DNA from: a virus
Lineage: Duplodnaviria > Caudoviricetes
IMG/VR virus record: IMGVR_UViG_3300024272_002379
Length of the DNA: 64,000 nt
Strand: one strand, 5' to 3'
The first letter of the stretch is position 1, and the number at the start of each line of letters is the position of its first letter. A model generated the notes under the pieces. It searched no databases and was not told the origin of the DNA. It saw nothing but the letters and a program-made list of their open reading frames with translations. The translations under genes and the position numbers were made by a program. Positions 41,258 through 57,112 of the stretch are shown here, in pieces.

Positions 41258-41311
41258 TAACTAAAAGCGGCCCGTTAGGGCCGCAACTCTACAAGAAAGG
41301 ATGGTACTATT

Positions 41312-41740
41312 ATGAATACAATATTTGACAAGTTTCTTACAATCCAGCACTGTGATTACTATGCTAATCAGGTAGCTAAAAAGCTTAATCTAAAGACTTA
41401 CTCATATTACTGGGATAATTCTTCTCAAATGCAGTTTCCTGGTAATTCTAATATCTTAAACTGGGGTGTTCTTAAATCATATGAGCCGTGGCGTATTAAG
41501 TTTAACTTAACTAAACCAGCTACTATTATGAAGATGGGATTAGAAGAATATGTATCTAAGAACCATGAGTTAAGATTTAATTTAACTATAAAGGGACTAA
41601 GTATTATCTATGTTATACAGTTTTATAATCCTAGTGATGATGGTTCTATGAATGCTGTAATAGATGAGAATACTAAATGTCTCTATGTAGAAGATAAGAC
41701 CACAGGGCAGTATTCTTTTGCCTTCGGCCCTGAGGTATAG
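41312..41740 (+). CDS. hypothetical protein
   Basis: 142 aa; AAAGGATGGT SD. Confidence 0.65.
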   Translation: MNTIFDKFLTIQHCDYYANQVAKKLNLKTYSYYWDNSSQMQFPGNSNILNWGVLKSYEPWRIKFNLTKPATIMKMGLEEYVSKNHELRFNLTIKGLSIIYVIQFYNPSDDGSMNAVIDENTKCLYVEDKTTGQYSFAFGPEV

Positions 41741-42534
41741 AGGTGTGCTTGTAACCTTGATAGGTACTAAACTGAACTACGTTCAGTTTAGCAGATATTT
41801 TCTTAAAAGTCAAGAGGTAACTCAAATAAAATCAGAGCGTTATCTGCTGTGTAAAGATAGCGGTTTAACGGAGCCACAAGACTATATTCCGTGGCACACG
41901 GACATTTATACGGGGATTTTGATATATCAACCCCTAATTTGTCTGTCCGTGGCGAACAATCTTAGGATTAGTAGCCCTCACAATGGAGCAAATTCTTGCG
42001 TAATAAGGCCCTTCGGGATTGAGTTGGCGTTACAAAGTCCGTAGAGATGAGATGATAATAGAATATTATACAGTCTCTCGACGAGGGTAGCTGGTCATCT
42101 TATTCTATTTTTGAGTATTTTATAACAAAATGTAACATAGTACTACTCATCGTAGTGTTACATTCTATATGAGGAGATATTCTCTTATATAGGTTATATT
42201 CCCCTCTTGACTCTATATACATGTATCTTATTACCTCTATTATATGGCTATGGTATGCTATGTTATTTATTATATACTATAGCCATTTTATATATTCATT
42301 TATCTAAGGTTTTCTTATATTCATATCTTATCTTTATGCCATATATTCTTTTATGGTTCTTAGAGATTTTATTCTATATTATTTAGGTTTTTAAGTTAAA
42401 TTATCTCTCCCTTCGGACTTAAATAATATACATGGTTTATTTCAAATATGTCGGAGGGTTTGAGGAATTTCTTTTAATTAGTATGGATTATCACCATATC
42501 TAACAGGCTATCGCCTGGTTTAAAGATTGGAGGA

Positions 42535-42873
42535 ATGTATATTATGGATGAAAGATTTGTTGCTATTATTGTATCTGCTATTATCGCTATTATATTTGCT
42601 TTAATATATCAGAGTATTGAAGATGCTTTCTTTACTGTGAAATATGATGAAGAAAATGATGAGGATGATACAGTAGAATACGAATTCATTGATGAAGACC
42701 TTTATCCTGGTTGTTTTGTTTATGACACTATTACAGGAGAAATCGTACAATACACTGGTGTTCATCTGGGTGAAGACAATAATAATTACGCTACCTGTGT
42801 ATCTATGAAAGATAATACAGTTCGCTATTATTATTGTTTATTTGAAACTATATTACATGTAAGACAGAAGTGA
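42535..42873 (+). CDS. small protein with N-terminal TM helix
   Basis: FVAIIVSAIIAIIFALIY; GGAGG SD. Confidence 0.6.
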   Translation: MYIMDERFVAIIVSAIIAIIFALIYQSIEDAFFTVKYDEENDEDDTVEYEFIDEDLYPGCFVYDTITGEIVQYTGVHLGEDNNNYATCVSMKDNTVRYYYCLFETILHVRQK

Positions 42874-42915
42874 TGAGCTGTCTTTAAAGAAAAAACGAAA
42901 GGTTGGTATACTATT

Positions 42916-45900
42916 ATGACAAACATTAATTTTGAAGATTTAAAGGTAACTGAATTGAAAGAGCTTTGCAGAAAGGCTAACATTAAAGGCTATTCTCGTA
43001 TGAAGAAAGCTGAACTCGTTGATGCTCTCAATAATAATAAAGAGGCTAAGAAAGTTATTCTTAATGAGGCTAAGACATTTGCTAAAAATGAATTAGGACG
43101 TGACTTTGGTAAAGCTGTATCTTTCTGGAAACAGTTACGTAGCATTAAATTCATGACTGCTAACGACTATACTGAAATGGTTGATAACTGGAAAATCCTT
43201 ATCAGTTTATTCCATATCGCTGAAGTTGACGGTACTCAGAATCGTGCTTTAACCGACTCTCTTATGGGTACTGCTGAATCTCTTCGTGATATCTTCTGTC
43301 CTGGAACTGATATCAGTGGTTATTCTGATGACGAACTTAAAGAGTTTATCGAATCATCAATCGAAGAGTTTTCATTATCTGTATTCTCTAAACGCTTAAA
43401 GAAAGAGAATACTGAAATCATTAAAATGAGCATGGACCATATTTCATTTAATGACCAGGGATTGGCATACTTTGACTCTACTAAAGCATCTAAATTCACT
43501 GGCAAAGAGGTTAGAGCTCATAAAACTGATATGCGTATCGTGGAATCATCTGAAGACGGTATCTCTCGTATGCTTATGAGCAGAGGATTATCATCTATCA
43601 CTGTATTTATGGGTAAAACTGCTCAGAAAGAAGAAGAGATGAAACTCATTAATGACTGTAAGAGAAACATCTTCAAAAATGGTTTTGTTGACATCTCTAC
43701 TGGCAAGCATTATATGTTCGCATTCCAGAATCCATCATCATGTCGTAAATCTAACTTCATGTTTGTTGAGGCAAACGACTGGAATGAAGTAGTTTCATTA
43801 TGGCTTGAGATTACTGGTCTTAAGACATGGGAAGAATTCCAGCGTGCATTCTTTGATGATGAGGGTAAAGTAGTTATGGCTAAGTTATTGGCTAGAATTT
43901 CTACTAGAGGTTCTAACTCATTTAACTTATCAAAGATTAGTCCTGTGTGGGCTGATAAGATTGCGAAATCTAATATCAGATATTGTAAAGACCCATCATG
44001 GACAATTAAGAGACCTTTCAAAACAATGAAAGGACCTGGTTGTATGGAAATGCAGGAAGACGTTGAACGTACAGTTACTCCTGGTGACGGTCAGATGATT
44101 GGCTCATTTGAATTCCATGCTCTTATGGCAGTTGCTTTAAGAGTTATCTCAGAGAATGAATACAATGAGTTCTCTATGTTATGGGAGAAAGCCAATAAGG
44201 ACGTTAAGAATGTAAAAGAGGGTTCTCGTCTTTACAAACTTATTAAGAAAATCCCAGGTGTATTCCAGCTTCGTCATGGTGAAAAGAAAGGTATCTGTGT
44301 AAGATACAATATTGAGGCTATTGATGAACTTAAGGATGTAAATGCTATCGTACCAGACAGTGTTCGTAAGTTCGTAGCTGGTGAATGGGATGAGTTCCCA
44401 TTGGAAATTTGTAATTATATCAAGAAGAAAGACCAGTGGGTAGCTTTAAATCCACAGTTCATTCAGGCTCTTGAATATGAAAATCCAAATGCTTTATTAC
44501 CTATTGTTAAGTTCTGGTTTGATTACATGAAAGACTCTCTCAGCGATATTGCTAAAGCTCAGCAGTTCCATGGTATTATTAAGAACTCTGATGATGAGGA
44601 GAATAAAACAATTGCTGGTAATCTTGTTACAGCTATGCGTACTTCATCTGATTTAATTGATGATGCACAGATTTGTAACTGGAGAAAAGACCAGTATCGT
44701 AAATTCATTTCTGATATGAAAATCGGTAGAATATTAGTTCCTGGTCAGTATACTTATATGGTATGTGACCCAGCATTCATTATCAATCAGGTATTTGGTC
44801 TCGATTTACCTCATCTTGCAGAGGGTGAATATTACCACAATGGTAAAGAATGTGAATGTGGATTATTCAGAAGTCCATTAATTCATCCAAGTGAGGCTCA
44901 GAGAGTTAAGTTATCTAACAATGAGGCTTATTGGTACATGCAGGATGTAATCGTCTTTAATGGTAAAGACGGTGCATGGGATAGAATGTCTGGGGCAGAT
45001 TTTGATGGAGATACCTGTGCTGTTATCACAAACGACACTGATTTTGGTAAGATTGTTGTTGACGGTATCAGACAATTATCATTTGATATCTGGGAAGAGG
45101 CACAGAAAGCTGTAAAGAAACCATTTAATATGGATAACTTTATTGAACATCTTGTAACTTCTGCTAAAGTTGATAGAACTGGTGTTATTACCAATTATGC
45201 TTCTAAAGCATTGGATATTAGTAATCATTTAAAGAGTGCTGTATACTTTGCTAAGTTATTAGGCTGTGAGAATATCACATTAATTCACCCACAGGCATTT
45301 GGTGAAAAGCTCGGTAGTGATTTCCAGCCTAAGACTGGTATTATTGATGGTGTGAAGACATTCATGCTCAAAGGATTTGTTGAGGCTAAATATAATTCAC
45401 AGACAAGACGTGTTGAATTTGCAGACACTGGTTTTGTTGGTACATTTGATTTCGATAAAATCCTTGAAATTGCAGATAATTATCTTAACCTTGTAGAGAT
45501 TTTAAGAATCTTACAGGGTAGAGAGATTGATGGTGCTAAGACTGGTGTATATGCAGAGGGTGTATCTGGTAATGACTTCATTGATGCTGTTAAGATTAAA
45601 TTCACTCCTCATGAAATGATTGTACGTCAGGAAACATTGGATAGAGAAGTTGCTTTATCTTCTAAATGTAATGAGTATTGGTCATTATCTCCTCTTGCAC
45701 GTATTCATGATTATGTAGTAATGCATGAAAATGAGATTATGGACTATTTAACAAATGGTTCTAATAAAATCTTCTTACTTCAGTCATTACTTACAGATGA
45801 GGAAGCTAATGCAATGAATACACCATATTTAATGCAGGATGGTAGTTATAAAACTCTTATTGACATTATGGCTATTCGTAAGAAAGCATATAACTCTAAG

Positions 45901-56434: not shown

Positions 56435-56528
56435 CGGAAGGTAGCCTAGTGGCTAGGCTTGTTGCGAAAAAACGGGTGAAAGCAACTGGAAACGCCGTTT
56501 GACGTGAGTTCGAATCTCACTCTTCCGT
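56435..56528 (+). ncRNA. tRNA-like RNA lacking a canonical anticodon loop
   Basis: acceptor CGGAAGG/TCTTCCG, D-arm GCCT/AGGC, T-arm GTGAG-TTCGAAT-CTCAC, 16-nt loop at anticodon position. Confidence 0.65.
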
Positions 56529-56708
56529 CTATATCATCAATATCAACTTACAACAGCCATGGTAATGTTGTGAGAGCGTCATAGGAAGACGTTCTTCCTA
56601 CTTCAAAGAGACTGGAGTATGCAACAATAGCTGATGAGGCTCATGACCCCATAAATTGCAGGATAAATAAACAGCGTCTGCTGAAAGATGACAAAGATGA
56701 TATTATTT

Positions 56709-56782
56709 GGACCATTAGCTCAGTTGGTCAGAGCGGTCGGCTCATAACCGATTGGTCCTTGGTTCGAGTCCAAGATGGTCCA
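56709..56782 (+). tRNA. tRNA-Ile2(CAT), or elongator Met
   Basis: GTCGG-CTCATAA-CCGAT; GGACC.T acceptor like Firmicutes lysidine tRNA-Ile2. Confidence 0.85.
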
Positions 56783-56832
56783 CTAAGAACTCAATACGCC
56801 TCTTAACAATGCGGACCACGTTGAGTCAAAAA

Positions 56833-56957
56833 CCTGGGGGAGCTGTGGCAAGCAGCCATCTGATAAATGGTGAGTTAAAATATGAAGATACTTTATATCG
56901 GCATATTACTATGGTGAAAACCCATTCATTAACTAGGTTCGATTCCTGGCTCCAGGA
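56833..56957 (+). ncRNA. tRNA-like RNA (GAT anticodon) with 61-nt variable region
   Basis: acceptor CCTGGGG/CTCCAGG-A, anticodon arm GCCAT-CTGATAA-ATGGT, T-arm CTAGG-TTCGATT-CCTGG. Confidence 0.65.
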
Positions 56958-57112
56958 CTATAATGCCTAACGGCATTAATATGGAATAGAAACCCCAATC
57001 AATTCCGTGTCAAACGAATTTCAAGACTACCAGGGGGAACCTAACAAGGCTGTTATTTGTGCTGCTTGTGGCGTTAGGCTGGTAGAAGTAACCTACCCCA
57101 ATTACAATTAAA

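Follow-up and report, generated by a model that had tools for sequence, protein, structure and literature searches.

The present analysis concerns a family of small hairpins in a stretch of 64,000 nucleotides (hereafter the window) of the Caudoviricetes record IMGVR_UViG_3300024272_002379. The source contig of this gut jumbo phage is 213,152 bp long, has a GC content of 34% and is rated complete; all coordinates follow the numbering of the window, extended past its end for sites located elsewhere in the genome. Genes are placed on the minus strand up to position 36,082 (structural genes, including the portal gene), on the plus strand from 37,146 to approximately 121,000 (the early/middle block), and again on the minus strand beyond. 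The plus-strand block encodes a two-barrel RNA polymerase of the YonO/RdRP family, and the hairpins, with perfect stems and loops of the type C(TANC)G, are dispersed through the same block. As judged from the DNA sequence, it appears fairly probable that they are DNA-structure promoters comparable to those of phage N4, which would be read by one of the phage's own two-barrel RNA polymerases.

The initial annotation of the window listed ten hairpins with perfect stems and TATC, TAAC or TAGC loops closed by a C-G pair, one of them (41267-41284) being inverted with a GTTA loop. All ten, including the inverted copy, were found as described, with stems of 5-8 bp. Four further members were identified in the window, at 50125-50138 (TACC loop), 53530-53549 (TGGC), 54457-54470 (TAAC) and 60756-60769 (TATC), the last two within coding sequences (Table 1). 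The suspected loop bias was borne out by a genome-wide scan: 29 perfect C(TNNC)G hairpins with stems of at least 5 bp were found, compared with 2.6 ± 1.6 (maximum 7) in 200 dinucleotide-preserving shuffles. Stems of the family are 5-12 bp long (mode 5-8) and always perfect. The bare hexamer CTANCG has no strand bias in the genome (92 copies on the plus and 93 on the minus strand); those flanked by a perfect stem of at least 5 bp number 20 and 5, respectively. Of the 29 hairpins, 20 are in sense orientation within the plus-strand block, between 42.5 and 99.8 kb, and the late blocks contain only a few copies with stems of 5-6 bp, which lack the downstream motif described below. Two other phages were examined: PMBT24 (a 100-kb AT-rich phage with a YonO-like polymerase) has no family hairpins, and Bacillus phage 0305phi8-36 shows no enrichment. 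The family is therefore clade-specific.

Table 1. Hairpins of the family and associated features in the window. Starts are those predicted from the sequence at 12 nt past the loop (loop+12).
Feature	Position	Strand	Predicted start	Remarks
Inverted hairpin, plus-strand GCGGCCC-GTTA-GGGCCGC	41267..41284	-		inverted orientation kept in six relatives
Hairpin CAGGC-TATC-GCCTG + AAGAT at loop+11..15	42504..42528	+	near 42524	
Gene of YonO/RdRP-family single-chain two-barrel RNA polymerase	42916..46650	+		1244 aa; candidate hairpin reader
Hairpin TACTGC-TAAC-GCAGTA	46659..46694	+		just past polymerase stop codon; A12 and G13 present; terminator-like
Hairpin GTACTCC-TAGC-GGAGTAC + TGGAA	47804..47830	+	47826	head of conserved small RNA
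Conserved small RNA, ~87 nt	47826-47912	+		anti-Shine-Dalgarno tract CACCATCCTTTCTT, CTCATCA-loop hairpin, U-tail terminator
Canonical intrinsic terminator GGGCTGAGC-TAAT-GCTCAGCCC + T-run	47878..47912	+		stem-loop 47878-47899
Hairpin AATGCCCC-TATC-GGGGCATT + CGAAA	49381..49408	+	49404	2 nt past stop codon
Hairpin AGGTC-TACC-GACCT, weak motif AAATT	50125..50149	+		33 nt ahead of ATG 50171; orthologues in L001-L005
Paired hairpins 50633-50650 (TGAAT) and 50676-50691 (TAGAG)	50633..50701	+	50655, 50697	either side of a GNRA hairpin
Hairpin TTCCCC-TATC-GGGGAA + AGGAT	52507..52532	+	52528	in final 90 nt of coding sequence, 38 nt before next gene
Perfect sigma-A promoter TTGACA-17-TATAAT + hairpin	53495..53557	+		promoter 53495-53523; upstream of tmRNA
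Hairpin ATTAGCCC-TGGC-GGGCTAAT + AGGTG	53530-53549	+	53553	first base is predicted start of sigma-A promoter 53495-53523
Phage transfer-messenger RNA (tmRNA)	53640-54015	+		ARAGORN and Rfam
Hairpin GGTGC-TAAC-GCACC + TGGTT	54457..54481	+	54477	370 nt into coding sequence of peptidase C39
Hairpin AGCTGTC-TAAC-GACAGCT	55153..55173	+		ends 2 nt before transfer RNA (tRNA)-Leu; tRNA 5' end at loop+10
Hairpin TAATGCC-TAAC-GGCATTA + TGGAA	56961..56987	+	56983	134 nt before ROOL RNA
ROOL RNA	57117-57810	+		Rfam RF03087, 231 bits; between hairpin 56961 and sigma-A promoter 57837-57865
Hairpin CAACC-TATC-GGTTG + AAGTA	60756..60780	+	60776	within coding sequence

The distribution of the family in relatives was examined next to the polymerase gene. 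A protein search with the polymerase returned 76 metagenomic relatives, many on contigs of approximately 210 kb; megablast against phages and searches of viral contigs with peptide patterns found no close relatives. The comparison set consisted of about 24 kb around the polymerase gene from nine relatives (34-79% polymerase identity, 34-46% GC; loci are designated by L numbers), and all of the fetched loci except the shortest carry the family. Among the hairpins of the first seven loci, C(TATC)G occurs 36 times, C(TAAC)G 22 times and C(TGTC)G 8 times. L007 has TACC loops, and L010, with its GC content of 46%, has TAAC loops. For the copies of the window, the initial annotation had noted that stems differ and loops are conserved. 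Between orthologous sites of the relatives, stem sequences vary but the class of the loop is retained. In two alignments of orthologous sites every cell is Watson-Crick paired, and two-sided changes affect 6/7 and 3/5 of the pairs, with no one-sided changes. The site of hairpin 42504 covaries in 7 genomes.

None of approximately 95 perfect stems contains a single G·U or A·C pair, and a search in which one wobble or mismatch was allowed added no members. Such a lack of wobble pairs is expected if both strands of the DNA have to fold. A comparison of G·U with A·C pairs, made both at the ends of the stems and within them and designed to separate folding of the sense RNA from folding of the template DNA, was uninformative, since the stems hold Watson-Crick pairs only; at the first unpaired position at the stem end there were 13 G·U and 17 A·C combinations. 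Footprinting by conserved 9-mers was too noisy in this AT-rich DNA.

These stems bear on the principal alternative, namely that the element acts in RNA: a sense hairpin c(UANC)g with its purine-rich tract could be bound by a phage or host factor that either cuts at approximately loop+11/12 or protects the new ends, thereby punctuating polycistronic RNA. We consider this a possibility of perhaps one chance in four. The absence of G·U from about 640 stem pairs would be unusual for RNA, and UAUC is not known to be a stable RNA loop, while its complement fits a stable DNA loop.

The strongest regularity of the family is a motif placed at a fixed distance from the loop. When 118 hairpins were aligned by the 3' end of the loop, position +10 was A in 65, +11 was T in 63, +12 was a purine in 105 and +13 was G in 80 (approximately 1 bit), followed by A or T at +14; the resulting consensus is A(+10) T(+11) R(+12) G(+13) A(+14). 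With the base of the stem as anchor, the best G count was only 33/97, and the flank showed no more than a diffuse excess of purines and deficit of C. In 20 of 22 cases the GGAW sequence begins at loop+12, whereas its offset from the stem base varies between 3 and 7 nt. The Y-R-G core at loop+11 to +13 is independent of stem length: the motif accompanies stems of 5, 6, 7, 8, 9, 10 and 12 bp, and in the longest of these it extends over the final two paired positions. Counted genome by genome, G at +13 is present in 12/22, 18/24, 20/38, 11/13, 7/8 and 11/12 hairpins.

The motif depends on the stem, being found at 67% of hairpins compared with 17% of stemless hexamers. A linear bipartite promoter without a hairpin was rejected for this reason, as the bare hexamer lacks the motif. 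C depletion as a generic property of leaders was also rejected, since it is about twice as strong after hairpins as in ordinary leaders. Loop position 3 and position +14 do not covary, and therefore the loop and the motif do not form a pseudoknot. In L001 and L006 the 5' end of a mature tRNA coincides with loop+12, whereas in the window it is found at loop+10. The tRNA ends at loop+12 would be equally well explained by a cleavage site in RNA; a count that starts from the loop and is blind to stem length is hard to square with recognition of a folded RNA.

The placement of the hairpins is tied to the downstream unit. Members with long stems are located 2-24 nt past a stop codon, but it is the spacing to the following unit that stays constant, at 25-50 nt for the next start codon. 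At 42504, for instance, the predicted start is 20 nt upstream of ATG 42544, which opens a 109-aa gene preceding the polymerase gene, and the paired hairpins 50633/50676 occupy the conserved leader of gene 50771. Some members are 2-4 nt ahead of tRNAs, and others precede the tmRNA and the ROOL RNA or head the small RNA 47826-47912, which ends in its own U-tail terminator. This small RNA was found in all close relatives. L007 holds another form of it, likewise headed by a family element and ending in its own terminator. Several copies (52507, 81948, 99807 and 83769) are situated within the 3' end of the upstream coding sequence. Those in coding sequences are maintained through rare synonymous codons: at 52507 every relative preserves the element by means of two rare codons, TCC and GGG, together with C-ending codons in the loop, and at the site of 54457 a synonymous compensatory change in L006 converts GGTGC/GCACC to GGGGC/GCCCC. 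Moreover, one member in L007 is found downstream of two canonical U-tail terminators, 41 nt before the next gene. Such placement speaks against terminators and favours an element associated with the unit that follows it.

The initial annotation had noted correctly that most members lack U-tails; after most stems A or T and then purines follow, the exception being 46669. In the ordinary terminators of the phage, the stem comprises 8-14 bp with some G·T pairs, the loop has 7-8 nt, and a U-tail follows. We rejected the assignment of the family to intrinsic terminators, as a GC-rich stem followed directly by a U-run is lacking in most members, apart from 46669 and the orthologous group of 47878. 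One might still envisage terminators or pause sites consisting of a hairpin only, at which a phage polymerase would need no U-tract. Copies directly after stop codons and the U-rich tails in two orthologous groups speak for such a function, and the virion polymerase of Thermus phage P23-45 has an unusual terminator motif of 26 nt (PMC10770324). On the other hand, members are found inside the 3' ends of upstream genes, 370 nt into the peptidase gene, in one case after canonical terminators, and 2-4 nt before tRNAs; furthermore, the motif is purine-rich and anchored at the loop, whereas termination points are counted from the stem base. We therefore regard this explanation as unlikely.

Placement is also two-sided with respect to an RNA-level function. 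Many copies 2-24 nt past stop codons, and copies abutting tRNAs and non-coding RNAs, are what processing sites might produce. The conserved copies in coding sequences (52507, 54457, 60756, 66230 and 81948) would, however, cut or block the message of the upstream gene, and the L007 element downstream of two efficient-looking terminators is equally awkward for this explanation.

Host promoters accompany the family at two sites. A near-consensus sigma-A promoter (49420-49447) is present downstream of hairpin 49381, and a perfect one precedes hairpin 53530. Strong promoters adjoining these two hairpins recall the PeSL cassettes of T4-type phages, in which stem-loops repeated between early genes are combined with a host sigma-70 early promoter, and the family might accordingly be a terminator hairpin joined to an ordinary host sigma-A promoter. 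PeSLs have a conserved sequence, whereas the stems described here are free, the loop is fixed and a host promoter is mostly absent. Among 106 hairpins, a good -35/-10 pair at the right distance was found only in the tmRNA orthologous group, and host -10 boxes upstream of the hairpins, which were considered separately, were found at the tmRNA site only. In addition, a promoter downstream of the hairpin would not fit into the 25-50 nt that usually separate it from the start codon. Of all the explanations considered, this one seems to us the least credible. The sigma-A promoters at 49420-49447 and 53495-53523 may instead give first the host and then the phage polymerase access to the same genes.

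The initial annotation had offered two readings of the hairpins, as template-strand hairpin promoters or as sites of protein binding or processing in mRNA, and these correspond to the explanation that we favour and to its main rival. The promoter reading gains support from the fixed-distance motif, the placement tied to downstream units, the Watson-Crick stems with double changes and the non-canonical polymerase. On the template strand the loops read GATA, GTTA, GACA, GGTA or GCTA, closed by C-G, and thus fit the class d(cGNNAg). This class was said from the outset to be very stable, which is backed by its description as a selected stable DNA tetraloop (Nakano et al. 2002, as cited in PMC10085684). 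With generic DNA parameters the template strand is favoured by only -0.4 kcal/mol.

The precedent is phage N4, whose virion polymerase binds a template-strand hairpin of 5-7 bp with a sheared G:A loop; any additional base pairs are melted, and the position of the start is determined by a ruler (PMC4496689). Like the N4 promoters P1-P3, the elements described here are short inverted repeats whose stems may have any sequence provided that the two arms pair. They share a template loop of the sheared-G:A type (here by fit to the d(cGNNAg) class) and a phage that supplies its own polymerase; a start measured from the hairpin, with longer stems melted at the base, is known for N4 and predicted here from the motif. 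In contrast, a loop of 3 nt in N4 corresponds to one of 4 nt here (template-strand GNYA), the start is located 10 nt from the loop in N4 and at a predicted 12 nt here, and N4 has three promoters at one genome end while about 20 predicted ones are spread here over 60 kb, also before tRNAs and non-coding RNAs. Moreover, the N4 reader is a T7-like single-subunit enzyme and the candidate reader here is a two-barrel enzyme. Since the polymerase found is of the two-barrel type, the family is an analogue rather than a strict member of the N4 family.

A start at loop+12 is predicted because a Y-R-G motif counted from the loop, Watson-Crick stems and a template loop of the d(cGNNAg) class together recall N4. 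From these features we infer the following course of events. The inverted repeat would extrude from supercoiled or transiently unwound DNA, and the template-strand arm would form a hairpin of 5-8 bp capped by a d(cGNYAg) tetraloop. After binding the loop and the upper stem, the polymerase would measure out a constant number of bases on the 3' arm and melt longer stems at their base. RNA synthesis would then begin at the purine 12 nt past the loop, with a pyrimidine at -1, a purine at +1 and G at +2 (A-T-R-G-A on the non-template strand). Besides early/middle protein genes, such units would drive tRNAs, the tmRNA, the ROOL RNA and the anti-Shine-Dalgarno small RNA, and some would stand in tandem with a host sigma-A promoter. 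Where transcription reads through it, the element would fold as an RNA hairpin too, and a few copies would have gained U-tails and act as terminators.

Perfect, strand-specific DNA hairpins over about 60 kb with a stable loop on the template strand might also serve another function at the DNA level, such as loading of primase or helicase on the lagging-strand template, or nicking. Since this would explain neither why the hairpins keep a constant relation to start codons, small RNAs and the 5' ends of tRNAs nor why they are restricted to one gene block, we consider it very improbable.

The candidate reader, a protein of 1244 aa, matches the RdRP domain of Pfam (PF05183, E = 2e-23) and has a Rho_N domain at its N-terminus; its nearest relatives in database phages, in Bacillus phage 0305phi8-36 and in Enterocloster phages, are only about 27% identical. 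A search of the phage with the PF00940 profile gave no match, and the control search likewise gave none. P23-45 has both a tail-fused virion polymerase and a non-virion polymerase of the two-barrel type, each with its own promoter class, and the non-virion enzyme serves the long early/middle block (PMC10770324). The hairpins described here span approximately 60 kb, including the operon of the YonO-like polymerase itself. By analogy with P23-45, we lean modestly towards the YonO-like non-virion polymerase, rather than a tail-fused virion enzyme, as the putative reader. A crAss-like phage polymerase of the same family transcribes single-stranded but not double-stranded DNA, and no linear motif was found upstream of its early transcripts (bioRxiv 10.1101/2020.03.07.982082). 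The promoter of YonO is unknown (PMC5467207). As context, hairpins of N4-type promoters are extruded under supercoiling and activated by a single-stranded DNA-binding protein. The present phage encodes such a protein (approximately 99878-100213; G000:C1:69488-69823), directly downstream of the last family hairpin (99807-99822). An A subunit of gyrase or topoisomerase IV was not found in the phage.

Several observations weigh against a promoter function. In this genome only about half of the copies have the full R12-G13 motif, and the inverted copy 41267 has a good minus-strand downstream motif (TAGTT) in this genome only. The stem of 46669 extends to 16 bp with two tandem G·U pairs and then a U-rich tail; its orthologues share a lower stem with conserved G·U pairs and the U-rich tail, an arrangement that works only in sense RNA. 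The terminator at 47878 has family loops in five relatives (the loops of its orthologues being TAAC, TTAC or TATC, without the TRGAW motif), and hairpins that act in RNA thus make use of this loop class as well. The predicted sigma-A start on the first hairpin base of the tmRNA locus is conserved in relatives; this is compatible with a hairpin at the 5' terminus of the RNA no less than with tandem promoters. The RNA forms of the hairpins are stable, at -4 to -13 kcal/mol, and the C(UAAC)G loop is common in rRNA. True terminators with family loops, a member with G·U pairs, a sigma-A start at the base of hairpin 53530 and stable RNA hairpins thus also stand on the side of an element acting in RNA. 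Finally, the reader of the N4 hairpin promoters is T7-like and not a two-barrel enzyme (PMC4496689).

Phage T4 is reported by Tuerk et al. (1988) to carry intercistronic C(UUCG)G hairpins. The resemblance lies in many short GC-rich hairpins with one favoured C-G-closed tetraloop between phage genes. However, UUCG is an exceptionally stable loop in the sense RNA, whereas the sense UAUC and UAAC loops are not and it is their complement that is a stable DNA loop; moreover, the T4 hairpins are not known to be followed by a motif at a fixed position.

Hairpin promoters are known from N4, and a version with a four-base loop, about 20 copies per genome, in phages with two-barrel polymerases would be undescribed in the literature that we searched. 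Whether they form a second, independently evolved class of DNA-hairpin promoters is, in our estimate, evenly balanced. In that case a two-barrel polymerase, either of the YonO/RdRP family or tail-fused, would measure the start from the loop at about 20 sites per genome throughout a clade of uncultivated gut phages of approximately 210 kb, and would drive mRNAs, leaderless tRNAs, the anti-Shine-Dalgarno small RNA, the tmRNA and the ROOL RNA. Until now, DNA-hairpin promoters have been known only as a peculiarity of N4-like phages with their T7-like polymerase. If extruded hairpins are indeed the start sites of a two-barrel enzyme that has YonO, the crAss-like virion polymerase and the eukaryotic RNAi polymerases among its relatives, this would explain why a linear promoter motif is missing for such enzymes, would fit the preference of such polymerases for single-stranded DNA templates, and would provide a concrete promoter consisting of a hairpin and a start 12 nt from the loop. 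The element would allow transcription units to be predicted in these abundant gut phages, a group without a cultured member, and might offer a compact design for orthogonal promoters.

Some further arrangements of hairpins were observed in the relatives. Three tandem family hairpins, spaced by approximately 45 nt and each with cGGAWT, are located upstream of one gene in L010 (16453-16590). Long hairpins of 11 bp followed about 20 nt on by TTTGTCAAGAGG were found in L003 (9148), L004 (9137) and L010 (20872-21199), the unit being present four times in the last of these.

As regards the other genes of the window, searches of PHROGs and Pfam with the neighbours of the hairpins gave almost no functional matches. 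Ten tRNAs follow the tmRNA, between 54889 and 58891, and a perfect sigma-A promoter (57837-57865) is placed 6 nt before tRNA-Tyr. The regions 61117-62452 and 63018-63764 encode an ABC transporter permease and ATPase pair and a PspA/IM30-like protein. The 1-kb divergent region that separates the late from the early block contains two copies of TTTTATATATATATTTTT (36484-36501 and 37014-37031), which could be AT-rich promoters or an unwinding element. Finally, the motif GACGWGGCT was noted at 47926, 52063 and 54415, as well as in L001-L007, on the plus strand in 22 of 23 cases. It is often located 25-40 nt upstream of a start codon, although some copies are coding (DEA or DVA), and it could represent a second class of promoters.

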